Part shown: in pieces, positions 56 to 61,691 of the stretch | Numbering within the stretch: position 1 is the stretch's first letter | How the letters are laid out: each line of letters starts with the position of its first letter | Assembly (NCBI GenBank): GCA_963793425.1 | Contig: CAWCAG010000007.1 | Coordinates: forward strand, 515,217-579,216 | Direction: 5' to 3' | Length of the DNA stretch: 64,000 nucleotides | DNA from: an uncultured cyanobacterium | Lineage (GTDB): Bacteria > Cyanobacteriota > Cyanobacteriia > Cyanobacteriales > CAWCAG01 | Program-made: the position numbers and the translations under genes | Notes under the pieces: model-generated | Seen by the model: only the letters and a program-made list of their open reading frames with translations | What the model was told of the DNA's origin: nothing | Databases searched by the model: none

Positions 56-1345
56 GTGAAAAGAGTATTAGGAATTATTTTGGGAGGAGGTGCTGGAACC
101 CGTCTATATCCCTTAACAAAAGTACGGGCCAAACCAGCAGTTTCCTTAGCGGGGAAGTATCGCTTAATTGATATTCCGGTCAGTAATTGTATAAATTCAG
201 AAATTTATAAACTTTATGTTCTCACTCAGTTTAATTCAACATCCTTAAACCGTCATATCGCCCAGACCTATAACTTTTCGGGCTTCACAGAAGGGTTTGT
301 AGAAGTCTTGGCGGCACAACAAACTGCTGAGAATCCTGGTTGGTTTCAAGGAACGGCTGATGCTGTACGCCAATACCTCTGGCTATTACAGGAATGGGAT
401 GTAGATGAGTATTTGATTCTTTCTGGAGATCATCTCTATCGCATGGACTATCGCGATTTTGTTCAACGTCATCGCGAAACAAATGCGGATATTACTCTTT
501 CTGTCGTACCGATTGATGAGAAAAGAGCATCTAGCTTTGGTTTAATGAAAATTGATGATAACGGTAGGATTATTGATTTCAGCGAGAAGCCAAAAGGTAA
601 TGCCCTCAAGCAAATGCAGGTAGATACCACAACCTTGGGATTACCTCCAGAAAAAGCCAGAAGAATGCCCTACATTGCTTCAATGGGGATTTATGTCTTT
701 AAAAAGGAAGTTCTTTGTAATTTGTTGAAAGCGAATCTTGAAGAAACTGACTTCGGAAAAGAGATTATTCCTGCTGCTGCCCCAGATCATAATGTTCAAG
801 CTTACTTATTCAAAGGCTATTGGGAAGATATTGGTACAATTGAAGCTTTTTATGATGCTAATTTAGCTTTAACCAAGCAACCTGATCCTGCCTTCAGCTT
901 CTATGATGCCAATGCCCCCATTTATACTCGTTCACGTTACTTACCCCCCACAAAACACTTAGATTGTCAAGTAACCGAATCAATGGTAGGAGATGGTTGT
1001 GTTATCAAATCCTGTCGTATTCACCACTCTGTTTTAGGAATCAGAACCAGGATAGAAGAAAACTGTAGTATTGAAGATAGCTTGATTATGGGAGCAGATT
1101 TTTATGAATCTTCAGCCCAACGCCGAGCTTCTTTAGATAAAGGTAAACCTCCTGTGGGTGTTGGCAGCGAAAGTACAATTCGCCGCGCTATTCTTGATAA
1201 AAATGCCCGTATTGGTAATAAAGTTCTGATTCTTAACAAAGATCGTATTGAAGAAGCTAATCGTGAAGAGCAAGGCTTCTATATCCGTAGTGGCATTGTC
1301 GTTGTGTTAAAAAATGCTGTAATCCCAGACGGGACAGTAATTTAA
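56..1345 (+). CDS. glgC: glucose-1-phosphate adenylyltransferase
   Basis: 429-aa ORF with GTG start. N-terminal [16 protein letters not shown] nucleotidyltransferase motif and full-length GlgC-like sequence. Confidence 0.95.
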
Positions 1346-1477
1346 CCACCTCGGATGAGGGAGTAGTAAACTGATAAAAGGCGACCCTATAGAAGTTATT
1401 AACCTTAACGAATACTAAAATGGGCCGCTTTTTATCTATTTGCAAACATACAATAATTAAAACGAGATAGAGGCATA

Positions 1478-1786
1478 ATGAGTCAACGCGATGGTTTCAC
1501 CGGGGGATTTTTAACAGGAGTAGTTGTTGGTGGCATTTTTGGAGGTTTAATGGGGGCGCTAGTTGCCTCTAAAAGCGAGAGAGAAACCGCAGAAGAAAAA
1601 GATTCTTTACTTAAGAACAACAATCAACCAGAGATTGCGGCTGGAACAGAAGAAAGTATCGAATTTGCCCGTCGTAGCTTAGAAGATAAGATCGCCCAAC
1701 TAAATTTAGCCATTGATGATGTACGTCAGCAACTAGGTACGGTTAATGGCAAAAGCATTGGTGTAGAGATAGAAAATGATTATTAG
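1478..1786 (+). CDS. YtxH-like small membrane-anchored protein
   Basis: 102 aa. Gly-rich hydrophobic N-terminus (GGFLTGVVVGGIFGGLMGALVA) followed by a charged helical tail. Confidence 0.5.
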   Translation: MSQRDGFTGGFLTGVVVGGIFGGLMGALVASKSERETAEEKDSLLKNNNQPEIAAGTEESIEFARRSLEDKIAQLNLAIDDVRQQLGTVNGKSIGVEIENDY

Positions 1787-1885
1787 TTCTTATCTAGGAA
1801 GTTGCTAAATTAACGAAGGGCAGTTCTACAAATCCAGTAGAATAGGTGTATTAAGACAATTCAGCCAAAAAGGTTCTAAAAACTT

Positions 1886-2158
1886 ATGAGCGCTACTCAA
1901 CTGTTCGCTACTAGCCTTGCCAACTTTATCTCGATTTATTCTCTGTTACTTTTGGTGAGAATTCTGCTAACGTGGTTTCAAACTATGGAATGGGCCAATA
2001 ATATTGCTGCTTTCTTGAGTCCCATTACTGATCCTTATTTAAACATTTTCCGTTCCTTTATTCCTCCCCTGGGCGGCATCGACTTGTCTCCCATCGTGGC
2101 AATTTTCGTTCTCAATTTTATTGGCTCTCAGTTAGGTAGATTAAGCCAAATAATTTAA
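1886..2158 (+). CDS. YggT/Ycf19 family membrane protein
   Basis: 90 aa, two TM segments. LLLVRILLTWF and DLSPIVAIFVL motifs are typical of YggT. Confidence 0.8.
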   Translation: MSATQLFATSLANFISIYSLLLLVRILLTWFQTMEWANNIAAFLSPITDPYLNIFRSFIPPLGGIDLSPIVAIFVLNFIGSQLGRLSQII

Positions 2159-2613
2159 TAGTAGTAAGGGCGAACTTTTCTGGCAAAACCAGAAGCTTTA
2201 AATTGCTTAAGCTGAAGAGGCGTTGGTTGATTTGCAGGTACACTAATCCTGATTTGAAAATCACTAACGCCAGGAGGAATTTCTTCAATAGAACCAATGC
2301 GATTACGGTTTTGCATCGCTGGGTTGCCGTTGGCATCGTAAATGCGACCGAAAACATCAGCATCCACCACCAGCTTGCTAGTAGAGTTATTAACCTTGCC
2401 ACTAACAACAAAACAGTTAGCTGCCCTAGTTGAACCAGTACCAACAAATCCTTCTGACAATTCAGCAGAACATTCTTGGTAGGAAAGATCAGAAATTTTA
2501 ACTTGAGTCAAAGCAAAAGCTTGAGGAGCAACCAAGGAACTAAAAAGCCAAAAGCAAAGGGAAATAGCTATAACAGTTAAAGCTCGAATACTCATAAAAC
2601 CGGATGCTCTCAA
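2155..2613 (-). CDS. secreted hypothetical protein
   Basis: 152 aa with an N-terminal signal-like hydrophobic segment ending AFA-LT. No family recognised. Confidence 0.5.
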   Translation of the reverse strand: MRASGFMSIRALTVIAISLCFWLFSSLVAPQAFALTQVKISDLSYQECSAELSEGFVGTGSTRAANCFVVSGKVNNSTSKLVVDADVFGRIYDANGNPAMQNRNRIGSIEEIPPGVSDFQIRISVPANQPTPLQLKQFKASGFARKVRPYYY

Positions 2614-2813
2614 TTATTTTGTGGAATAATGCCTTGATCTTAAGATAACGCGGATTAGTTATCAATTAAATTTTAGTTAATTTGCGGTGCATTAATTACT
2701 TAAGAGTCAATACTCAACATCTGGTTTTCATGAAATTAAGAGTATAGTGCTAGAGTCAAGGACAAAAGGGGATTTAGCATCAAAATCAATTATTAGCTTT
2801 ATAATTTGCACCC

Positions 2814-3908
2814 ATGGTATTGCCAACTAATTTAACCAAACGCTATCAACATATTCTTTGGGCTACCGTTCGTCACTATATCGCTACAGCAGAACCAGTG
2901 GGTTCAAAAACTTTATATAATCAATATGACTTTAGGGTTGCCGCCACAATCCGTAATGCTATGGGGCGTTTAGAAAAGGCTGGTTTACTCTATCAACCCT
3001 ATACTTCTTCTGGTAGGATTCCTTCAGACTCTGGTTATCGAATTTATGTAGATAACCTCATGACTCCGGATGAAGCTTTAGGCAATAGGGTAGAAGAGTT
3101 GCTGAGTAGTAAGCTTAATTGGGATTCTTGGAGTTTCGAGGATCTTTTGCGGGGGGCAGCCCAGATTATTGCTACCCTAAGCGGTCATATTGCCCTAATT
3201 ACTATGCCCCAACATTCTACTACGAGATTGCGTTACTTAAAGTTAGTCGAAATTGGGCAACAACAAATCATGTTAATTGTGGTGACAGATTGCCATAAAT
3301 CTCAATCTATTCTTATGGAAAGAAACTCAACACAGAAAAGAGAAGATGGAGTAGATATACAGTTAACAGAAAGAGAACTAAATATGCTTTCTAATTTTCT
3401 TAATAGTAAGTTGCAAGGACATTTGCTATCAGAATTAGCTTGCATAGATTGGGGAGAATTAGACCGAGAATTTGAATGTTATGCAGATTTTTTGCAAGTA
3501 TTGCAAAAGGAATTAACTCGCCGTTCCCAAGCCCCTAAATCTAATCCTATTATGGTTAGGGGGCTTTCAGAAGTTCTACGCCAACCAGAATTTTCCCAAT
3601 TAGAACAAGTGCAAATGTTGCTACATTTATTAGAAGAAGAACAAGAGCAGCTTTTACCCTTAATCTTAGCTATCCCAGGAGCAGAAAGTAATCAAAAGCG
3701 AGTTACTGTGAGAATTGGTGCGGAAAATCCTCTTCAACCTTTGACAACTTGTACTTTAATTTCTGCTTTATATTGGCAAAATGAAGTCCCTTTAGGCAGT
3801 GTTGGTATTATCGGTCCAACGCGAATGTTATATGAAAATGCCATTCCTTTAGTAGAGTCAGCAGCAGATTATCTTTCTAGTACTTTAACTCAGGTTTTTG
3901 CATTTTAA
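2814..3908 (+). CDS. hrcA: heat-inducible transcription repressor HrcA
   Basis: 364 aa. N-terminal winged-helix region (ILWATVRHYIATAEPVGSKTL) and C-terminal GSVGIIGPTRM motif are typical of HrcA. Confidence 0.9.
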   Translation: MVLPTNLTKRYQHILWATVRHYIATAEPVGSKTLYNQYDFRVAATIRNAMGRLEKAGLLYQPYTSSGRIPSDSGYRIYVDNLMTPDEALGNRVEELLSSKLNWDSWSFEDLLRGAAQIIATLSGHIALITMPQHSTTRLRYLKLVEIGQQQIMLIVVTDCHKSQSILMERNSTQKREDGVDIQLTERELNMLSNFLNSKLQGHLLSELACIDWGELDREFECYADFLQVLQKELTRRSQAPKSNPIMVRGLSEVLRQPEFSQLEQVQMLLHLLEEEQEQLLPLILAIPGAESNQKRVTVRIGAENPLQPLTTCTLISALYWQNEVPLGSVGIIGPTRMLYENAIPLVESAADYLSSTLTQVFAF

Positions 3909-3914
3909 GCGACG

Positions 3915-4661
3915 ATGGAAATAATCAACTCAAAAATACAGTCCATCCTCAAGCTAGAGGGCTTGAGTTTAGCTACATATGTGGGAAATGTTTATTTATT
4001 ACAAGATATCTTTTTTACTGTTTATCCTGGGGAATTTATTGGTATTGTTGGTGCTTCGGGGGCGGGAAAAACTTCTCTTTTACGCTTAATTAATCGTCTT
4101 GGAGAAGCGACTTCTGGCGCAATTTTTTTTGAAGGGAAAACAATTAAGCAAATACCCATTCAGAAATTACGCCAACAAATAGTTCTCGTCTCTCAAGAGC
4201 CTAAACTATTAGGAATGAAGGTAGAAGAAGCCCTAGCTTATCCTCTAAGGCTTAGAAAAATTTCTTCCCAAGAAATCTCCTCTCAAGTAAATAAATGGCT
4301 GGATAAATTAAAGATTAATCCAGATTGGTTAGAGCGCAATGAACTACAACTTTCTACTGGACAAAAACAACTTATTGCTATTGCTCGTGGTTTAATTATA
4401 GAACCCAAAGTTTTATTATTAGATGAACCAACTTCAGCTTTAGATATAGAACAAACAGAGCATTTACTAAAGGTTCTTAGGGAATTAACCACCGAAAAGA
4501 AAACCACCATAATCATGGTTAATCATCAACTGGAGTTGATTAAAAGATTTTGTCAACGCATCCTTTACCTAAAACAGGGAAAATTACAGCAAGATGCTCT
4601 AAGCAAAGAAGTTAATTGGTTGCAATTAGAAAAAAGTCTGAAAGAAGCAGAATTATACTAA
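3915..4661 (+). CDS. ABC transporter ATP-binding protein
   Basis: Walker A GASGAGKTS, ABC signature LSTGQKQ, Walker B LLLDEPTSALD. Confidence 0.9.
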   Translation: MEIINSKIQSILKLEGLSLATYVGNVYLLQDIFFTVYPGEFIGIVGASGAGKTSLLRLINRLGEATSGAIFFEGKTIKQIPIQKLRQQIVLVSQEPKLLGMKVEEALAYPLRLRKISSQEISSQVNKWLDKLKINPDWLERNELQLSTGQKQLIAIARGLIIEPKVLLLDEPTSALDIEQTEHLLKVLRELTTEKKTTIIMVNHQLELIKRFCQRILYLKQGKLQQDALSKEVNWLQLEKSLKEAELY

Positions 4662-4907
4662 ATCCGATGTATAAAAGCCAATAATGAATTAAACATAAGT
4701 TAACCAAACGATAATTCGTTACTGGTGTTTCTATTTTGTTTGTACACAACTTTTTAGGGATAATACTTCAAACAATTTTCAAGTTGAGAATATTCACCTG
4801 CTGCATTTTTTTGTAAGCTACAGTATCAATTGTCGTCATTTCTGTTCTTTTAGCAGATAGTATTTCGTACTCAAATATCTCAGCAACAACGTAAAACTGT
4901 TCTCTTT

Positions 4908-6056
4908 CTATGGCCAAACTTGTTTACCTTGTTTGTCAATGTAAACATACTCGCCTTCTAAGGTAGAGTGCCATAATGTGTTCTCAAAATTATTTACATA
5001 ATCTAAACGGGCCGGTACAACCATTTGGCCAGTCTTATCAATAAGTCCCCACTTACTATTAGATTTTACAGGGGCCAATCCGTTAGTAAATTCTTCCGCT
5101 ATTTGAAACTGTGATTCGATAGCTATTTTTCCTGTTTCGTCAATATAACCCATCTTATTATTTAGTTTTATGGGAGCTAAACCTTCAGCAAATTTTCCTG
5201 CAAACTCAAATTGAGGAGAAATAGCCCACTTACCTTTCGAGTTAATAAATCCCCATTTTCCTTTACTCTCAGCAGCAGCCAAACCTTCTGAAAAACTGCT
5301 TGTCCATCCTAACCAAGGACGGACTACCCATTTTCCTTTTTTGTTGATGAAGCCCCAGCCACCATATTTAACAGCAGCTACTCCTTCTGAAAATGATTCT
5401 GCTGCCTCAAATTTAGCTTTGCTTACTTGTCTACCTTCGTTATCAACAAAACCCACTAAATTATTTTGGAAAAACTTAGCTCGTCCTTCTGAAAATTGGG
5501 CTACAGATTCATACTGTGGTGATACTATAAATTCACCAGTTTTGTTAATGAAACCCCACTTGCCATCTTTTTGAGCAGCAGCTAAACCTTCTGAAAAGTT
5601 ATTAAGTTGAGCAAATTGATTCTTGACTACCAATGTTTCCTGATGGTCGATAGCTCCCCAAAGATTATCTATTTTGACTAACGCTAGTCCTTCCACAAAA
5701 GGTCTAACTTCAGCAAATTGAGGGCTAATAACTACTTTACCTTTTGTGTTAACAAAACCCCATTTACCTTCTATTTTTACAGCAGCAAGTCCTTCAGAGA
5801 AGGTAGTAGCATCAGCAAATTGAAGAGGAATCATTATCTGACCTGAGTTGTCAATATAACCATATTTGCCCTGTTCATTGACAAGATATCTTTCTTCGGA
5901 CATATTACTAAGCTCTGAGGAAGAAATTGTTACAGAATTCAATTTATTAGAGTTACTTGAGACTAGTTGGGGAACCTGGCAACTGCTAAGGATAAAACTA
6001 ATAGTAATAGTTATCCAGAAGTGGATTGTAATTTCTTTAATAATTGATCTGCTCAT
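4908..6056 (-). CDS. WG-repeat lipoprotein (candidate immunity protein for the upstream toxin)
   Basis: 382 aa. Lipobox ILSSC. About ten tandem repeats of the form KWGFINxxGxxVIxPQFxxxxxFSEGLAAV. Start lies 34 nt downstream of toxin gene 6091-7413 on the same strand. Confidence 0.85.
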   Translation of the reverse strand: MSRSIIKEITIHFWITITISFILSSCQVPQLVSSNSNKLNSVTISSSELSNMSEERYLVNEQGKYGYIDNSGQIMIPLQFADATTFSEGLAAVKIEGKWGFVNTKGKVVISPQFAEVRPFVEGLALVKIDNLWGAIDHQETLVVKNQFAQLNNFSEGLAAAQKDGKWGFINKTGEFIVSPQYESVAQFSEGRAKFFQNNLVGFVDNEGRQVSKAKFEAAESFSEGVAAVKYGGWGFINKKGKWVVRPWLGWTSSFSEGLAAAESKGKWGFINSKGKWAISPQFEFAGKFAEGLAPIKLNNKMGYIDETGKIAIESQFQIAEEFTNGLAPVKSNSKWGLIDKTGQMVVPARLDYVNNFENTLWHSTLEGEYVYIDKQGKQVWP

Positions 6057-6090
6057 CTAGCTTCTAAATCAGAATGTTTTTTTGAAGACA

Positions 6091-7413
6091 TTAAGACTCA
6101 TTCTTAATGGTAATTCTGCCTACACTTCTTGAATCTTTTCTAGATTGGATTAAATAAGCCCATATTTGTTCCCAATGTTCTGTATTAACAACTGTGACAC
6201 AACCTTGGCTCACCATACCTGGATGTAGATAGCGATCTCCACTATTACCGATACGGAACCAAGTTGTGGCGTAGTTACCATATGCGGCTCCAAGACTATG
6301 TTGATAGTCAGGAATTTCTAGATCGTATGTACCTGAAGGAATAGGATTGGTAGCATCCATATGTGCGCTTATGGGACCGAAGCTACCAAAATTAAACTGA
6401 CCATTCCACACATTTCCAAAATCCTTGACTTTTGTCCAAGTTACCTGAGCTGAACTATTAGGATTGAGGTAATGACCCAATTGGTCTGTGCTTACCTTTG
6501 CTTTTTTGTCTTTATAATACCCTTCGTGAATTTTAATCCTTCTTACGTCTCCTTCGTTAGTTAATAGGGTAACTTTGAGAGTATGTGGAAGTTCTACAGG
6601 CTCTCCAGGGATATGGAAAGGACCAAGATAACCACTTTTTAAATCAGCCCATCCTGGGTGCTGTGGAGCTACAATACGACGATACGTACCTCCTCTAGCA
6701 ATCAATTGCTCTTCATTTCCCCTAGAAGCTGCTTGCTCAGATTGCGAATCTTCCTTTTTAGCAACAAAGCTGTTGTTATCTGGAATGGATGAAGTGTTCT
6801 TTTGATAGTCTTTTAATAAAGGCTGAACAGACTCTCCAGCAGCTACCTTAGCCCCCACAGCATCAGCCTCCACCTCATACTTATCTCCCACCTTGCCCAT
6901 CTCCCCCGCAAGTTGTACCTTACCGGATTGTTGCTGGACAACATGAGTTCCTTCATGGGCAGCTAACTCAACGCTAGGAGGCTTTTGGAAAGCAATCTTG
7001 TTCCCCATTGTATAAGCCTGCGCCCCCAATTGCTTACTCGCTGCTGTTGCTGGGCCACCGATATAAGCTTGGACATGGGATAAATCTTGTCCAAATGACC
7101 TTTGAATTCTATCTAAATGGGGTAACGCTACAGGGGAACCTGTAAAACCTGTAGCAGCAATCTGGGTGGGAGAATGATTAGCTTCTTCACCTCCACATTT
7201 GGCACATTTAGCTTGTACCTGTAAACCAGAACACATATTATCCCACATGGCCTTTTCACCGGCTATTTGCTGTTGCGTTGATGACTTCTTTTGAACTACA
7301 GGATTAGGAGTAGCTTTTTGTTGTACAGGTTGAAAGTGAGGGGCAGAATTAATAGTTGGCTTTGGTACAGGAGGAATAAAAGAGCTAGATTTTTGGACAA
7401 GTTTGTGACTCAT
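6091..7413 (-). CDS. polymorphic toxin A: DUF4157 (HExxH) N-terminal domain + L,D-transpeptidase/Tlde1-like C-terminal domain
   Basis: 440 aa. DUF4157-like stretch LDRIQRSFGQDLSHVQAY...GAQAYTMGNKIAF...AAHEGTHVVQQ (HExxH encoded at 6943-6957). C-terminus GTYDLEI...TTWFRIG...DRYLHPGMVSQGCVTV (Cys codon at 6199-6201) fits the His...Ser-x-Gly-Cys pattern of YkuD/DUF2778-type folds. Confidence 0.75.
   Translation of the reverse strand: MSHKLVQKSSSFIPPVPKPTINSAPHFQPVQQKATPNPVVQKKSSTQQQIAGEKAMWDNMCSGLQVQAKCAKCGGEEANHSPTQIAATGFTGSPVALPHLDRIQRSFGQDLSHVQAYIGGPATAASKQLGAQAYTMGNKIAFQKPPSVELAAHEGTHVVQQQSGKVQLAGEMGKVGDKYEVEADAVGAKVAAGESVQPLLKDYQKNTSSIPDNNSFVAKKEDSQSEQAASRGNEEQLIARGGTYRRIVAPQHPGWADLKSGYLGPFHIPGEPVELPHTLKVTLLTNEGDVRRIKIHEGYYKDKKAKVSTDQLGHYLNPNSSAQVTWTKVKDFGNVWNGQFNFGSFGPISAHMDATNPIPSGTYDLEIPDYQHSLGAAYGNYATTWFRIGNSGDRYLHPGMVSQGCVTVVNTEHWEQIWAYLIQSRKDSRSVGRITIKNES
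7084..7413. repeat. copy 1 of a duplicated 330-bp toxin 5' module (codons 1-110)
   Basis: Near-identical to 8556-8885. I count 7 amino-acid substitutions in 110 codons. Homology ends exactly after codon 110 (FGQD). Confidence 0.9.
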
Positions 7414-7452
7414 GGTTAGTGACGGAAGGAAGATAATTTGAGTAGAAAACAG

Positions 7453-7494
7453 TGCTTCTTAAACATTGCTTCTTAAACATTGCTTCTCAAACAT
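7453..7494. repeat. three tandem 14-bp direct repeats (TGCTTCTTAAACAT x2, TGCTTCTCAAACAT) upstream of toxin A
   Basis: Read directly from the sequence. They sit in the 137-bp gap between 7551-7946 and the toxin A start codon. Confidence 0.85.
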
Positions 7495-7550
7495 TCTGTT
7501 ACGGAAACATCTTTTAAAATGAGTTCCAATGTGAACTTTCGTCAAAATAA

Positions 7551-7946
7551 CTAAAGACCGATTAATCCTGTTGAAACAGAAACATTGACAACTTTGCCTT
7601 CTTGATGATCAATTGCCACTAACCATCTTCTTGAAACAAGCAATGCTTTGCTAAGCAACAGTTTGCTAAAGTCACAATGAAGAAAATCTTTCTCCTCAGT
7701 AGTTCCAAAAGTTTCATCTTGGAGATATCTACACTTAAAGCGATTTTCCTCCATTACTTTTTTTGCTTGGAAAACAGGACTACCCACCGAAATATGAGCT
7801 AGAATCTCTTTTTCCATCAAGCGTGGATCTTCATAAAACTTGATTTTGTTTACCATTGATTTACTCGCAAAGTTAAAAGCAACGTACACAATGATTCCTA
7901 CTAGGAAAAGAAGTAAAAAGTTTAGTGGTTTTTGATATATATTCAT
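7551..7946 (-). CDS. small membrane-anchored protein (candidate immunity protein for toxin B)
   Basis: 131 aa. One N-terminal TM helix (LNFLLLFLVGIIVYVAFNF) plus a domain of about 100 aa. Start lies 9 nt downstream of toxin B on the same strand. Confidence 0.5.
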   Translation of the reverse strand: MNIYQKPLNFLLLFLVGIIVYVAFNFASKSMVNKIKFYEDPRLMEKEILAHISVGSPVFQAKKVMEENRFKCRYLQDETFGTTEEKDFLHCDFSKLLLSKALLVSRRWLVAIDHQEGKVVNVSVSTGLIGL

Positions 7947-7955
7947 GTTGTTGAG

Positions 7956-8885
7956 CTAAATTTTCATTTTCCAACCAGGGGCCCATACAGGTGGAGAAGG
8001 ATTACCTAAATCAGCATCTCGTATACCTTGATGAGCTACAGAGTTACTGTTGGGACCTAATGGAAAATAACGAAGTTTTTGGGCTGCAATTCGACGCATT
8101 GTACCCACTAAGCTATCCCTGTATCTATTACAGGCTTTAAAATCCAAGTTAGTTGCTGCTTTAATTGTGCCACTGATATTTCTTCCCCAATCTACAGAAC
8201 TAGAATCATATTGCCCATAGCTAGTGACTAAGTATCCCCAAAAACCTTGATCCGTTCCACTAGAGTTGCTTGAATCAGTACGACTTACATCACTGGCAGT
8301 ACCACCAGTGCTACCACTACCGCTACTACCGCTAACACCTCCATTTGCACTCGGTCCACCGCGAAAAATTGTTTCTCTTGCAGATTCGATAGGTTTACCT
8401 TGCTCATCTACAGCTACTGGATCTGAAACTATAATGAAACCATGATTACCTACCCCAAAATCTACTCCGTAGTAGCGAAGCTCAACTTTACCTGGCCGAG
8501 TAAAAGATTTGGCAAGTTGTATTGTTGAGGCTCGGTCACTTTCTACTTTAGCTGAATCTTGTCCAAATGACCTTTGAATTCTATCTAAATGAGGTAACGC
8601 TAAAGGGGAACCTGTAAAACCTGTAGCAGCAATCTGGGTGGGAGAATGATTAGCTTCTTCACCTCCACATTTGGCACATTTAGCTTGTACCTGTAAACCA
8701 GAACGCATATTATCCCACATTGCCTTTTCACCGGCTACTTGCTGTTGCGTTGATGACTTCTTTTGAACAACCGGATTAGGACTAGCTTTTTGTTGTACAG
8801 GTTGAAAATGGGGAGCGGAACTAATCGTTGGCTTTGGTACAGGAGGAAGAAAAGAACTAGATTTTTGGACAAGTTGGTGACTCAT
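7956..8885 (-). CDS. polymorphic toxin B: same 110-aa N-terminal module as toxin A, unrelated C-terminus, no HExxH
   Basis: 309 aa. Residues 1-110 are about 94% identical to toxin A. It then diverges (SAKVESDRAS...), with a Gly/Ser-rich linker and a C-terminal region ending ...YFPLGPNSNSVAHQGIRDADLG... that I could not assign to a family. Confidence 0.7.
   Translation of the reverse strand: MSHQLVQKSSSFLPPVPKPTISSAPHFQPVQQKASPNPVVQKKSSTQQQVAGEKAMWDNMRSGLQVQAKCAKCGGEEANHSPTQIAATGFTGSPLALPHLDRIQRSFGQDSAKVESDRASTIQLAKSFTRPGKVELRYYGVDFGVGNHGFIIVSDPVAVDEQGKPIESARETIFRGGPSANGGVSGSSGSGSTGGTASDVSRTDSSNSSGTDQGFWGYLVTSYGQYDSSSVDWGRNISGTIKAATNLDFKACNRYRDSLVGTMRRIAAQKLRYFPLGPNSNSVAHQGIRDADLGNPSPPVWAPGWKMKI
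8556..8885. repeat. copy 2 of the duplicated 330-bp toxin 5' module
   Basis: See 7084-7413. Partial similarity continues a few nt into the 5' UTR/RBS. Confidence 0.9.
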
Positions 8886-8929
8886 AATTAGTCAGGGAAG
8901 AACGCTACATTATCGTACTTTGTGCCGGG

Positions 8930-9035
8930 ATGTCTCTTTCTCCTCGTTTATCTGACCTAATCTATCAAGCTAGTGAAGAACAATCTACCTATATAACCTT
9001 CAATTTAGCCCTAAAAACTTTTCCTCAACCTTTAT
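8930..9035 (+). pseudogene. AAA+ ATPase (Afp15/Pvc15-like), N-terminal fragment cut off by IS insertion
   Basis: ATG at 8930. The reading frame MSLSPRLSDLIYQASEEQSTYITFNLALKTFPQPL runs into the IS left end. Joining 9035 to 10376 continues the ORF in frame. Confidence 0.65.
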
Positions 9036-10375
9036 CAAAACGAAAAAAAGGTTTAAAACCCCGCCGTTTTAGGGCGGATTCGTTGATTTTTTCAGGTACA
9101 ATAAACATAATTTGCCAATAGCAACTGTTGCAACCAACATGAAAGCTAGATACAGATACAGATTTTACCCAACGAAGGAGCAGAAACACTCATTTGCTCA
9201 ACTATTTGGCTGTATCCGCGTCGTCTGGAATGATGCTCTGGCACAATGCAAAAGTGAAGGCAAAGCATTAAGCTACAACAAACTATCTAGCCTGTTAACC
9301 ATAGCCAAGAAGACAGAAGAAAGGATTTGGCTAAGGGATGTATCAGCAGTCCCCTTACAACAAACTTTAAGAAACTTAGCCGCAGCCTATAAAAACTTTT
9401 TCGACTCGTGCCGTGGTAAAAGGAAAGGTAAAAAAGTCTTACCACCAAGATTCAAAAAGCGGAGTAATCAACAAAGTGCAGCATTTACAAAATCAGCCTT
9501 CTCAATGGAAGGGCAACAAGTCTGCCTAACGAAAATTGGCAACATTACACCTATACTCTCAAGAGAACTTCCCTCAACTCCCACCTCTCTAACAGTAATC
9601 AAAGGTAGTGCGGATAGATACTTCATAAGCTTCGTAGTTGAAATACAACCACAAAACTTACCTAAGTGCCAATCAAGCATAGGAATAGACTTAGGAATAA
9701 CCGACTTTGCCACATTCAGTAATGGAGAGAAAATCAAAGCCCCAAAACCCTTAAAAAAGAAACTAAAGAAGCTCAGAAAACTACAACGTAACCTTGCCAG
9801 AAAGACGAAAGGTAGTAAGAGACGAGAATTAGCTAGAAGGAGAGTAGCCAAGCTTAACGCCAAGATAAAAGACACCAGAACAGATTTTCTACATAAGCTA
9901 TCAACTAAGATAATTCGTGAAAACCAAACGATAATCTTAGAAGATTTAAACGTATCGGGAATGCTCCGAAACCGTAAGTTATCCCGTGCAATTAGTGATT
10001 TAGGTTGGCGTAGTTTCAGAACTATGTTAGAAGCCAAATCAGTAATGTATGGCAGAGAATTTAGGGTAATAGATAGATGGGAACCCACATCACAGAGATG
10101 TCATGAGTGTGGTTTTAGAGGCGGCAAGCAGGAACTCTCTATTAGAGAATGGACTTGCTTAAACTGCGGTGCAGTTCACGATAGAGACGTTAATGCCGCC
10201 ATAAATATCAAAGTCGCGGGGGGACACTCTGAGACGATAAACGGACGTGGAGGGAAGCGTAAGACTACAACCGTAGCAGCACCCAAAGAAACGTCAACCC
10301 ACTTAAAACCTGTTCAACTTTCGTTGTTTGGGTAGATGAGGAATCCCCGTCTCTTTAGAGCGGGGAGGATGTCAA
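9036..10375 (+). mobile_element. IS200/IS605-family, tnpB-only (IS1341-type) element
   Basis: Boundaries were set by comparison with the second copy at 61148-61664. The shared sequence starts after TTTAT and ends ...GGATGTCAA. Subterminal hairpins: CCGCC-GTTTTAG-GGCGG near the left end and CCCCGTCTCT-TTAG-AGCGGGG near the right end. No tnpA gene. Confidence 0.85.
9139..10335 (+). CDS. tnpB: TnpB RNA-guided endonuclease (IS605 OrfB family)
   Basis: Probable ATG at 9139 ([12 protein letters not shown]). The ORF track extends to a TTG at 9112. RuvC motifs IGIDLGITDF, IILEDLNV and [11 protein letters not shown] are present, plus the zinc ribbon CHECG...CLNCG. Confidence 0.9.
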   Translation: MKARYRYRFYPTKEQKHSFAQLFGCIRVVWNDALAQCKSEGKALSYNKLSSLLTIAKKTEERIWLRDVSAVPLQQTLRNLAAAYKNFFDSCRGKRKGKKVLPPRFKKRSNQQSAAFTKSAFSMEGQQVCLTKIGNITPILSRELPSTPTSLTVIKGSADRYFISFVVEIQPQNLPKCQSSIGIDLGITDFATFSNGEKIKAPKPLKKKLKKLRKLQRNLARKTKGSKRRELARRRVAKLNAKIKDTRTDFLHKLSTKIIRENQTIILEDLNVSGMLRNRKLSRAISDLGWRSFRTMLEAKSVMYGREFRVIDRWEPTSQRCHECGFRGGKQELSIREWTCLNCGAVHDRDVNAAINIKVAGGHSETINGRGGKRKTTTVAAPKETSTHLKPVQLSLFG

Positions 10376-10395
10376 ACCATAGTCTTAATCCCCAT
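10180..10395 (+). ncRNA. predicted omega-RNA (scaffold over the tnpB 3' end and right end, plus a flank-derived guide)
   Basis: By analogy to characterised TnpB elements. The region is conserved in the deleted copy at 61.3-61.66 kb and contains the right-end hairpin. Exact 5' end and guide length are unknown. Confidence 0.4.
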
Positions 10396-12007
10396 GCCCC
10401 CTTACGTCACTGGCAAATTATCACTCCCATAGGTACAGACCCCCTGTTTTTACGTCCCTTAGCCTTAGATGAAACCATCTTCCACTACCTCTTAGGACAA
10501 CCTTGCCTTGACCCACAATTACAGGGTTTAGTCAAGCCTTTAACCCTGAAGCAAACAACCTTGCCCCCTTCCCACCAAGCCTTAGCAACCAGGTTAATCA
10601 CTGCCTGGTCTAGCCCTAACCCTCCGGTAGTACAATTAGTGGGTTCTGATTTTGCTGCTAAGGCTACTATTGCTGCTATTTCAACTCAACAGTTAGGCTT
10701 TTCTTTACTCACCATCCCTGCCCATCTCCTACCCCAAGAAACCACAGCATTACAAGAATTCTGCCAACGACTAGAAAGACAAACTATTTTGGGACGTAGC
10801 TTAGTTTTCCTCGATTGTCGTCAAATCTTAGAAAGTGATGGTTTAGCAGAGAAATTCTTTTCTCAATTAATTGAACAACTGCCTACTCCCTTCCTCATTA
10901 ACTCCCCAAAGCCCAAACAAATTTCTCAACCTTGCTTAATTCTGGAAGTTAACCCTCCCACTAAAGGGGAACAATTGCAACTTTGGCAAACTGCCTTGGG
11001 AGATGTGGCTACAAATTTAGAAACAGAATTGGCATCCTTGGCATATCAATATAATCTCGACCTCCCCACTATCCAAACCATCTGCACTCAAACTCTTACA
11101 GAATTGAACTTAAGTAACTCTCCTAGAGAATTACTCCCCAGCCTCCGACAAAACTGTCACCGTTTAGTTCGTCCAGCTTTACAAGGGTTAGCACAACACA
11201 TCGAAACCAAAGCAGATTGGGACAGATTTAATCCTGCCGGAAAAAGAAAAGAACATCCTTGAAGAAATTGTTGCCCAAGTTACTTACAGAAAAACTGTTA
11301 GTGCCGACTGGGGCTGGGCAGGGAAAGGGCAACGGGGACAGGCAATGGTGGCAGTCTTCGCTGGGGCAAGTGGTACAGGAAAAACTATGGCAGCAGAGTT
11401 GATTGGAAAGAGGACAGGTTTGGATGTTTATCGTATTGATTTGGCTGCTGTGGTGAGTAAGTATATAGGGGAAACGGAAAAACATCTGGGTCAAATTTTT
11501 GATGGTGCAGAAAGGGGAGGAGCAATTTTACTTTTTGACGAGGGGGATGCTCTGTTTGGTAAGCGTACTGAAGTAAAAGATAGTCGCGATCGCTATGCTA
11601 ATTTGAGTGTTAGTTATTTGTTGCAACGTTTGGAAGCTTACGGTGGATTAGCTATTATTACTACTAATTGGGAAGAATCTTTGGATAAAGCTTTTAAACG
11701 GCGTTTTCGCCATATTGTTCAGTTTCCCATGCCAGATAAAGAGACCAGGAAGCTACTTTGGCAAAGGATTTTTCCTCAAGCGACACCAACCCATCAGTTA
11801 AACTTTACGGAGTTAGCAAAGATGCACATTAGCGGTGGTCATATTCGCTCCATTGCTCTTAATGCCTGCTTCCTCGCTGTCAAAATAGGACAACCAGTGA
11901 CTATGAAGCAAGTGGCGATCGCTGCCCGTGGAGAGTACATAAAGCTAGATTTGGGAAATATGGATAGTTTTACTCAGCGTTGGTTAAAAGAAGCGGAGTT
12001 AAGTTAA
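10376..12007 (+). pseudogene. AAA+ ATPase (Afp15/Pvc15-like), main body with a 1-nt frameshift
   Basis: Degenerate first AAA-like region (VVQLVGSDFAAKATIAAI), then an intact module: Walker A GASGTGKTMAAE, Walker B LLFDEGDALFGKR, DRYANLSVSYLLQRLE, ITTNWEESLDKAFKRRF. The frame switches at the T-run 11227-11229. Removing one T gives ...DWDRLILPEKEKNILEEIV... The ATG at 10336 (MRNPRLFRAGRMS) lies inside the IS right end and is an artefact. Confidence 0.75.
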
Positions 12008-12084
12008 TTAAAACCTACTCCCTTAAAAAATAACTAAATTTTCTTTGCAAATCGAAAAAACAGTAATACAATCATTATTCATAA

Positions 12085-13557
<1,473 letters not shown>

Positions 13558-61025: not shown

Positions 61026-61286
61026 AATTAAAGTTTCTCCACCCTTGTTGCTAATTATTTATCGTCTGAAGGGCATGGTAGCTGTGTATTAACCCTATTG
61101 TCTAGTAGAAAAGCTTTAATCATAGAAAAACTGGGCATACTGTTTATCAAAACGAAAAAAGGTTTAAAACCCCGCCGTTTTAGGGCGGATTAGTTGGTCT
61201 TCTCAGGTATAATAAACATGATTCGCGAATAGCAGCTATTGCAGCCAACATGAAAGCCAGATACAGATACAGATTTTACCCAACAA

Positions 61287-61478
61287 ATGAGCAGAAAGCG
61301 GATGCGACCCCGCGTCGGCGAAAGACGCAAGGGAACGCGCACCAAGCAAGAACTCTCTATTCGAGAATGGACTTGCTTAAATTGTGGTGCAGTTCATGAC
61401 AGAGATGTTAACGCTGCTGTAAATATAAGAGGTGCGCTTAGCCTAACGGCAACGCTCCGCGACCCAACCGCAGTTTAA
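61287..61478 (+). pseudogene. chimeric tnpB remnant
   Basis: The ORF retains only [26 protein letters not shown] of TnpB. Its N-terminus comes from filler and its C-terminus from the nested insert. Confidence 0.8.
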
Positions 61479-61497
61479 CTACGGTTGGGTCGCACCT
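61427..61497. repeat. nested 71-nt hairpin insert (MITE-like) absent from the full-length copy
   Basis: The alignment AAATAT[insert]CAAAGTCGCGG against 10206-10220 defines the insert. Terminal inverted repeat GAGGTGCG/CGCACCTC. Inner perfect 12-bp stem GCGACCCAACCG (61459-61470) / CGGTTGGGTCGC (61482-61493). Confidence 0.7.
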
Positions 61498-61691
61498 CAA
61501 AGTCGCGGAGGGACACCCTGAGACTCTAAACGGACGTAGAGGCAGGTGTAAGACTACTACTGTAGCAGCAGCCTATGAAACGTCAACCCACTTAGAACCT
61601 GTTCAACTTTCGTTGTTTGGGTAGATGAGGAATCCCCGTCTCTCTAGAGCGGGGAGGATGTCAAGAATATACTGATGTATCTAAGCTGAAA

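Follow-up and report, generated by a model that had tools for sequence, protein, structure and literature searches.

In the genome of an uncultured cyanobacterium, a 64,000-nt stretch of contig CAWCAG010000007.1 (GCA_963793425.1, positions 515,217 to 579,216; hereafter "the window") holds an insertion that carries tnpB as its only gene and interrupts the remnant of an AAA+ ATPase gene. The insertion occupies positions 9036-10375 on the plus strand, is 1,340 bp long and has C9036 as its first base; directly 5' of that base stands TTTAT (9031-9035, plus strand), which belongs to the target. We are confident that it is an IS200/IS605-family insertion sequence with the architecture of IS608 and ISDra2, non-autonomous and limited to tnpB, and that it inserted 3' of the tetranucleotide TTAT (9032-9035, plus strand, preceded by T9031). 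This family identity had already been given in the initial annotation, and it is supported by the Pfam domains of the protein, by the hairpins at both ends and by the position of the insertion 3' of T-TTAT.

The boundaries were placed by colinearity with an empty site, locus L081, in which the orthologous gene is uninterrupted, and by about 25 right ends and 24 left ends of related elements. The latter come from an independent boundary test that covers 80 related loci in other cyanobacterial genomes. At the right, the element closes at 10375 with GGATGTCAA, and the terminus GGAATCCCCG-hairpin-CGGGGAGGATGTCAA is kept in about 25 of the related loci, from different cyanobacteria; similarity among these elements breaks off exactly after TCAA, and the flank that follows differs locus by locus. 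At the left, 24 elements have C(A/G)AAA...GGTTTAAAACCCCG-hairpin in common, and 5' of the first C they are dissimilar between loci apart from one tetranucleotide. These left ends were gathered by a fuzzy motif search, BLAST of the left end against the related loci being insensitive (2 hits). Further flanks of the same element were sought with exact left-end patterns in two metagenome scans, which gave zero matches.

The uninterrupted locus matches the two sides of the insertion in BLAST, L081 6202-6336 corresponding to window 8900-9034 and L081 6338-7960 to window 10376-11999, and the joint TCAACCTTTAT|ACCATAGTC pairs base for base with TCAATCCTTAC ACAATAGTC of L081. When position 9035 is fused to 10376, the result (...FPQPLYHSLNPHAPLRHW...) reads in a single frame, and protein alignments of seven homologues (37-83% identity) cross the joint without insertion or deletion. 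An in-frame joint could be a 1-in-3 coincidence, and the gap-free alignments with L081 and the homologues carry it beyond that. Because they are gap-free across the joint, exactly 1,340 bp were inserted, with no duplication of the target, and TTTAT is target sequence. The boundaries first proposed, TTTAT at 9031-9035 and the end at 10375, therefore proved exact, with the related elements ending in the same way and L081 running through the joint; the single reading frame across 9035/10376 was likewise confirmed, and the claimed insertion 3' of a short motif without duplication finds its support in the empty orthologous site.

Both ends carry a subterminal imperfect hairpin (9061-9077 and 10345-10365), and both hairpins are conserved in relatives with compensatory changes. 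The left end (9036-9078, plus strand) begins CAAAACG and contains a guide-like AAAA (9055-9058) directly 5' of CCCCG, within the conserved GGTTTAAAACCCCG motif, followed by the hairpin arms CCGCC (9061-9065) and GGCGG (9073-9077). The right end (10341-10375, plus strand) consists of GAAT (10341-10344), the hairpin, the 10-nt AGGATGTCAA and, as the last bases of the element, the cleavage tetranucleotide TCAA (10372-10375), so that the right cut falls 10 nt beyond the hairpin foot on its 3' side. In the 24 left ends, changes in the flank tetranucleotide go along with changes in the four bases that immediately precede the CCCCG hairpin motif; the flank/guide pairs are TTAT/AAAA (10 times), TCAC/GAAG (three), TGAC/CAAG (three) and TTAC/AAAG (two), with TTAT flanking 11 of the 24. 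Complementarity between flank and guide holds at two places, each in 21 of the 24 left ends and through four pair types: flank position 2 with guide position 1, and flank position 4 with guide position 4. The right end fits the same complementarity rule, GAAT being matched with TCAA. In IS608, TTAC/AAAG is the left pair and TCAA stands 10 nt away from the hairpin of the right end, and when its left guide sequence is altered the target alters predictably (PMC3201880).

Because the covariation of flank and left-end guide is the IS608 rule for cleavage site and guide, we infer that the 4-nt core TTAT is the target-adjacent motif (TAM) of this TnpB. ISDra2 TnpB has as its TAM the target of the transposase TnpA, and its guide corresponds to about 16 nt of right-flank sequence (PMC8612924); a preprint states the same (bioRxiv 10.1101/2023.03.14.532601). 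It is on this ground that we predict TTAT as the TAM and, as the guide, the 16 nt directly after the right end, ACCATAGTCTTAATCC (10376-10391, plus strand), the similarity of the related elements stopping at 10375. An empty site would offer TTAT and, immediately after it, ACCATAGTCTTAATCC as the target, and the window has just one other match to the guide, which with 3 mismatches is at chance level. The guide from 10376 onward had been proposed before, and as a prediction it gains support from the roughly 25 related right ends and from the empty orthologous site.

As for the TAM, the initial annotation offered TTTAT or TTAT, and it is the TTAT core that the covariation in the 24 left ends favours, the longer form being possible without being established. 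A 5-nt target and TAM, TTTAT, strikes us as distinctly unlikely. ISDra2 does use a 5-nt motif, TTGAT, and a T stands at position -5 in both local copies of the element (the second one is described below) as well as in 8 of 12 TTAT-type elements; with 30% T, eight or more would arise by chance with a probability of about 0.0095, a value that is suggestive only. However, the related loci L001, L005, L006 and L017 have G or C at this position, the covarying guide of the left end is 4 nt long, and AT-rich flanks may inflate the count of T. In addition, a TTAT TAM was determined experimentally for the TnpB of ISDge10, a genome editor (PMC13507860), and this characterised TTAT-type TnpB requires the 4 nt only.

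The gene tnpB itself (9139-10335, plus strand) is intact and encodes 398 amino acids. Its product matches OrfB_IS605 (PF01385, 3.8e-33), the Cas12f1-like TNB domain (PF07282, 1.3e-23) and HTH_OrfB_IS605 (PF12323, 2.6e-17), all above the curated cut-offs, and a phmmer search of PDB sequences retrieved ISDra2 TnpB (8BF8, 8EXA and 8H1J) with E = 2.8e-73 over query residues 6-377. In the alignment with ISDra2 TnpB, both CxxC pairs find their counterparts, as do the GxDxG, E and HDRD motifs, which confirms the intact D/E/D RuvC triad and zinc ribbon claimed at the outset: the triad is D184/E268/D350, and the ribbon is formed by CHEC at 321-324 (C321/C324) and CLNC at 340-343 (C340/C343). The catalytic residues of ISDra2 TnpB we take to be D191/E278/D361. 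The protein is predicted to be an active nuclease. Public assemblies contain P0121, a protein of 100% identity, and the members of its cluster include proteins from metagenome-assembled genomes (MAGs) of Spirulinaceae cyanobacteria. The nearest relatives beyond its own 90% cluster show 77-90% identity, and hundreds of annotated cyanobacterial TnpBs show 62-70%.

We also considered that this TnpB could be a domesticated, nuclease-dead and RNA-guided regulator of the TldR type, for which a missing neighbour tnpA and a guide fixed by the flank would both be fitting. The triad and the zinc ribbon are intact, however, both transposon ends are present and conserved, and the guide region is unrelated among copies, as a mobile element predicts. 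With the catalytic site and both ends intact, we rejected this candidate and give it hardly any credence.

The predicted guide would be carried by an omega-RNA, also termed right-end element RNA (reRNA), whose scaffold of about 170 nt we place at 10205-10375 on the plus strand, where it overlaps the tail of tnpB as well as the right end. In an alignment of 18 elements, the last ~170 nt of the element show nucleotide conservation beyond the need of the variable TnpB tail, and of the 32 pairs in the RNAalifold consensus, 15 show compensatory changes. In the window, the scaffold helices (plus strand) are 10205-10209/10368-10372, 10213-10221/10227-10235, 10244-10248/10291-10295, 10265-10268/10272-10276 and 10345-10353/10358-10365. 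In total, 94.9% of the cells are paired, compared with 32-48% when the partners are slid, and none of 500 shuffles matches any of the five observed pairing measures. The window sequence folded alone by minimum free energy yields the same helices, and the conserved structure ends at the element boundary. We regard this 3' structure as a putative, though well predicted, omega-RNA scaffold, which would presumably be expressed. A promoter-like TTGATT, 17 nt, CATAAT (9083-9111, plus strand) lies upstream of tnpB as a match to the consensus only, promoter-like sites in the region being no more numerous than in shuffled sequence.

That said, several observations speak against this view of the element, and they concern its transposase, the left end, the empty site and the RNA. 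No tnpA is found in the 64 kb of the window, where tblastn with the family TnpA from the related locus L013 gave a best E of 0.5, so that the absence claimed earlier holds over this distance. At the left end, the cut and the CCCCG motif are 23 nt apart, compared with 19-20 nt in relatives and 19 in IS608; the longer spacer is an extra A-run, which might impair excision. The orthologous site in L081 is TTAC, with a further mismatch at guide position 3, and L081 is an empty site by homology rather than the actual allele before insertion. The predicted RNA fold is no more stable than shuffled sequence (z = -0.94), and an Rfam scan of 8000-12500 (E <= 1) gave no family within the element, its results being a thiamine pyrophosphate (TPP) riboswitch and one chance hit. 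It is covariation, then, that appears to carry the case for an RNA, and the terminal hairpin doubles as the DNA hairpin that TnpA would recognise, which makes its covariation by itself no argument for RNA; helices 3, 4 and 6, inside the tnpB tail, do argue for one.

The lack of a transposase is in itself not unusual, since tnpB-only members are an accepted configuration of the IS200/IS605 family (PMC8612924). Because the window contains no TnpA-like sequence, we file the element as a non-autonomous member, whose movement would require a compatible TnpA from elsewhere in the genome. In 7 of the 80 related loci, including the TTAT-type L013, L024 and L075, a divergent Y1 tnpA lies between the left end and tnpB, from which it follows that autonomous partners with the same ends exist.

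Other copies of the element are found both within the window and beyond it. The 27-nt right terminus recurs once in the window, at 61638-61664, with 1 mismatch and against a chance expectation of 0. There it closes a decayed second copy of 517 bp (61148-61664, plus strand), which has TTTAT directly 5' (61143-61147) and GAATATACTGATGTAT as its right flank; the initial annotation had compared the element with this copy, and correctly so. In BLAST, the second copy keeps 61143-61297 (the left end) and 61343-61426 plus 61497-61664 (the 3' 250 nt) at 87-91% identity, while its tnpB is mostly deleted, with fragments remaining. An intact copy of 93% identity, L085, sits at a third insertion site with identical ends and another flank, and partial copies occur on several MAG contigs. 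L084 represents the same locus in another assembly, with flank differences from the window of 0/1,388 on the left and 7/1,461 on the right. The tnpB genes of the window and L084 differ by 29 synonymous and 28 non-synonymous codons, and the ratio of non-synonymous to synonymous substitution rates (dN/dS), about 0.3 by rough estimate, suggests constraint.

These copies bear on whether the element is a stranded fossil, that is, a copy with no compatible TnpA, whose longer left spacer blocks excision and whose TnpB and RNA are idle and have not yet decayed. The window without tnpA, the heavy decay of the second copy and a left-end spacer some 4 nt longer than that of relatives are all in line with such a history. 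Yet TnpB is full-length with all catalytic residues present, the rough dN/dS between window and L084 suggests constraint, and the intact L085 together with the partial MAG copies indicates a multi-copy family that was active recently. On balance we consider the fossil unlikely, and prefer a mobilisable element that works as follows. It would have been inserted as single-stranded DNA 3' of TTAT, without duplication, into the AAA+ ATPase gene, by the catalysis of a Y1 TnpA presumably supplied in trans. TnpB would bind the ~170-nt RNA with the guide ACCATAGTCTTAATCC; transcription of this RNA would begin in the 3' end of tnpB and run on across the right end to the flank. After excision, this complex would cut the donor joint TTAT|ACCATAGTC..., and recombination with a sister copy would then restore the element. 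Such a role in homing and retention has reportedly been shown for the TnpBs of ISDra2 and GstIS605.

Some further observations were made on the copies. Within the tnpB interior, window 9174-9993 and L084 1536-2355 differ at 73 positions, and the first 300 nt of the L084 interior are nearer to the paralogous copy in L085; this mosaic may be either gene conversion between element copies or a chimera of metagenome assembly. Public contigs break inside or at the element ends, as L082 begins in the right end (L082 1-63) and L085 at the T preceding the left end, and the TnpB cluster includes several MAG proteins with a "partial" annotation, both being typical of a multi-copy repeat. The second copy in the window holds two GC-rich foreign segments, 61298-61342 and 61427-61496, each unique in the window. 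The latter has an inverted repeat (35 nt, 91% identity) and is located just 5' of the start of the equivalent predicted omega-RNA scaffold; in L019 and L076, small GC-rich inserts likewise break up the same RNA region.

The gene that received the insertion is best described against its orthologue P0002, a 652-aa ATPase, 86% identical, which is encoded on a 528-kb contig at the uninterrupted locus L081. The 5' remnant (8900-9035, plus strand) corresponds to codons 68-112 of P0002 according to BLAST, tblastn and alignments. The 3' part (10376-12007, plus strand) has an extra C at 11223, and the open reading frame (ORF) 11345-12007 within it carries the AAA domain at residues 4-128 (PF00004 at 3.1e-21). 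By tblastn, the ATPase of the window shows 83-91% amino acid identity to P0002. Homologues are 644-715 aa long and have an N-terminal winged-helix domain, of which the window retains little: in PF22977, only profile positions 167-218 of 221 match, with 16.7 bits against a cut-off of 27. The ATG at 8930 aligns to Met77 of P0002, within the conserved LCAGM motif, and residues 1-67 of P0002 are encoded nowhere in the window, the tblastn match starting at residue 68. The reason is seen in the comparison with L081, whose positions 5375-5720 equal window 8555-8900, whereas the following 481 bp (5721-6201, intergenic sequence plus 67 codons) are missing, and near 8900 the upstream region of a divergent 309-aa gene abuts codon 68 of the ATPase. 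The junction near 8900 shows a GA(A)G microhomology.

If one base is dropped near 11225, the joined gene reads as 578 aa plus a stop. The total of exactly 579 codons first reported stands as arithmetic, but it does not describe a gene, since the gene has lost its 5' part and the first codon counted is an internal Met. The correction of a single T that accompanied it has to be replaced: the extra base is C11223, which two sister assemblies lack, namely L082 (a contig from a Spirulinaceae MAG, with its first base within the right end) and L084, and removal of this C restores the family-typical WEDLILP. L084 carries the insertion together with the 5' deletion; only the window assembly has the frameshift. 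In a related genome (L083), the ATPase is cut at yet another point, with homology from window 10682 onward. The ATPase is a remnant damaged several times, by a 481-bp 5' deletion, by the insertion and, in the window assembly, by a +1 C frameshift.

The initial annotation had proposed that the insertion dates the loss of the ATPase, that is, that it inactivated a gene intact until then. We think this rather unlikely and do not maintain it. The insertion splits the coding sequence at orthologue codon 113, and excision would restore the local frame, as the proposal expects. Nevertheless, the upstream region and the first 67 codons are gone too, and because L084 has the two events as well, the insertion and the 5' deletion cannot be put in order. 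With three independent lesions, and the two older ones without a discernible order, the insertion does not date the loss. Moreover, the related genome of L083 lost the 5' part of its ATPase independently, which shows a gene that decays in this lineage regardless of the insertion.

Comparison of window 10378-12007 with L082 and L084 gives 8 nucleotide differences, all of them synonymous once C11223 is removed. Five of the eight lie within 48 bp around the frameshift, and at all eight sites one variant is also present in the diverged alleles L081 or L083, a pattern that points to recombination rather than to new mutation. We rejected the 8:0 synonymous ratio as proof of ongoing selection, given that recombination or standing variation explains it equally well.

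The right end of the element also contains possible start codons for what remains downstream. The tnpB stop TAG (10333-10335) is followed at once by an ATG at 10336, in frame with the downstream ATPase, and the conserved terminus GGATGTCAA contains a second ATG in the ATPase frame, at 10369. A protein of 545 aa from a public MAG (P0001, "ATP-binding protein") is annotated from this second, transposon-borne ATG. It is conceivable, though we consider it a long shot, that the insertion did more than inactivate the gene and that ATG 10336 or 10369 supplies the start of a 545-556-aa ATPase without the winged-helix region that would have remained selected in sister strains, as the eight synonymous differences from L082 would allow, and equally far-fetched that transcripts for the truncated ATPase read out of the element. 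If true, in-frame insertions of this element family would be portable start sites for truncated proteins.

The ATPase gene adjoins genes of the eCIS_core (DUF4157) toxin type. Window 6091-8900 is a toxin-like array on the minus strand, made up of an eCIS_core (DUF4157) gene (6091-7413), the product of which has a C-terminus weakly resembling Tlde1, a 131-aa ORF (7551-7946) and the 309-aa gene, which has no Pfam hit (7956-8885). When the translations are compared by eye, the 309-aa gene repeats about the first 110 residues of the 6091-7413 gene and then diverges, and the end of the repeated module coincides with the 481-bp deletion that took the 5' part of the ATPase. In L083, three eCIS_core genes with small ORFs between them precede the truncated ATPase (positions 1009-5900), and this locus looks like a rapidly rearranging region of polymorphic-toxin cassettes. 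On the other side, the TPP riboswitch (12079-12175; Rfam RF00059, 71 bits, E = 3.7e-13) is immediately followed by a 457-aa ORF (12184-13557), which we take as a probable thiC, the arrangement being an ordinary one.

Among characterised systems, ISDra2 is similar in that its TnpB is homologous over nearly the full length, with the same RuvC triad and zinc ribbon, and in that the TAM lies 5' of the target and the RNA, predicted here from the tnpB 3' end and right end, takes its guide from the flank. It differs in having tnpA and the 5-nt TTGAT, whereas the element of the window has no tnpA and is flanked by TTAT, with RNA and cleavage at the level of prediction. IS608 shares the left cleavage site in the flank, the 4-nt guide 5' of the hairpin and the TCAA right cut 10 nt past the hairpin foot, and the relatives L009 and L018 even have its TTAC/AAAG pair; unlike IS608, the window element has the target TTAT (guide AAAA) instead of TTAC (AAAG), a spacer of 23 and not 19 nt, and no tnpA. 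With ISDge10 it shares the 4-nt TAM, predicted for the window TnpB, and the likeness is one of TAM and not of compared sequences. IS200/IS605 is the most abundant insertion sequence family in Planktothrix (PMC9366434). The right terminus is the same as in tnpB-only elements of Synechocystis PCC 6803, Planktothrix and Microcoleus, among others, from which the present element differs as a lineage-specific variant in Spirulinaceae-type genomes.

The element is ordinary for its family, and its triple of nuclease, guide and TAM, though sound as a prediction, is a routine one that brings no new biology, as the mechanism, the logic of the TAM and a TTAT TAM are established elsewhere. For annotation, the ATPase is to be corrected to a remnant with multiple lesions, and the public 545-aa "ATP-binding protein" starts inside a transposon end. 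For this as yet uncharacterised cyanobacterial TnpB, the 398-aa protein, its predicted TAM TTAT, the predicted scaffold at about 10205-10375 and the guide form a concrete set, compared with sequence data, that can be cloned. The covariation among TTAT, TTAC, TCAC and TGAC ends moreover amounts to a small natural series of related TnpBs with differing predicted TAMs.

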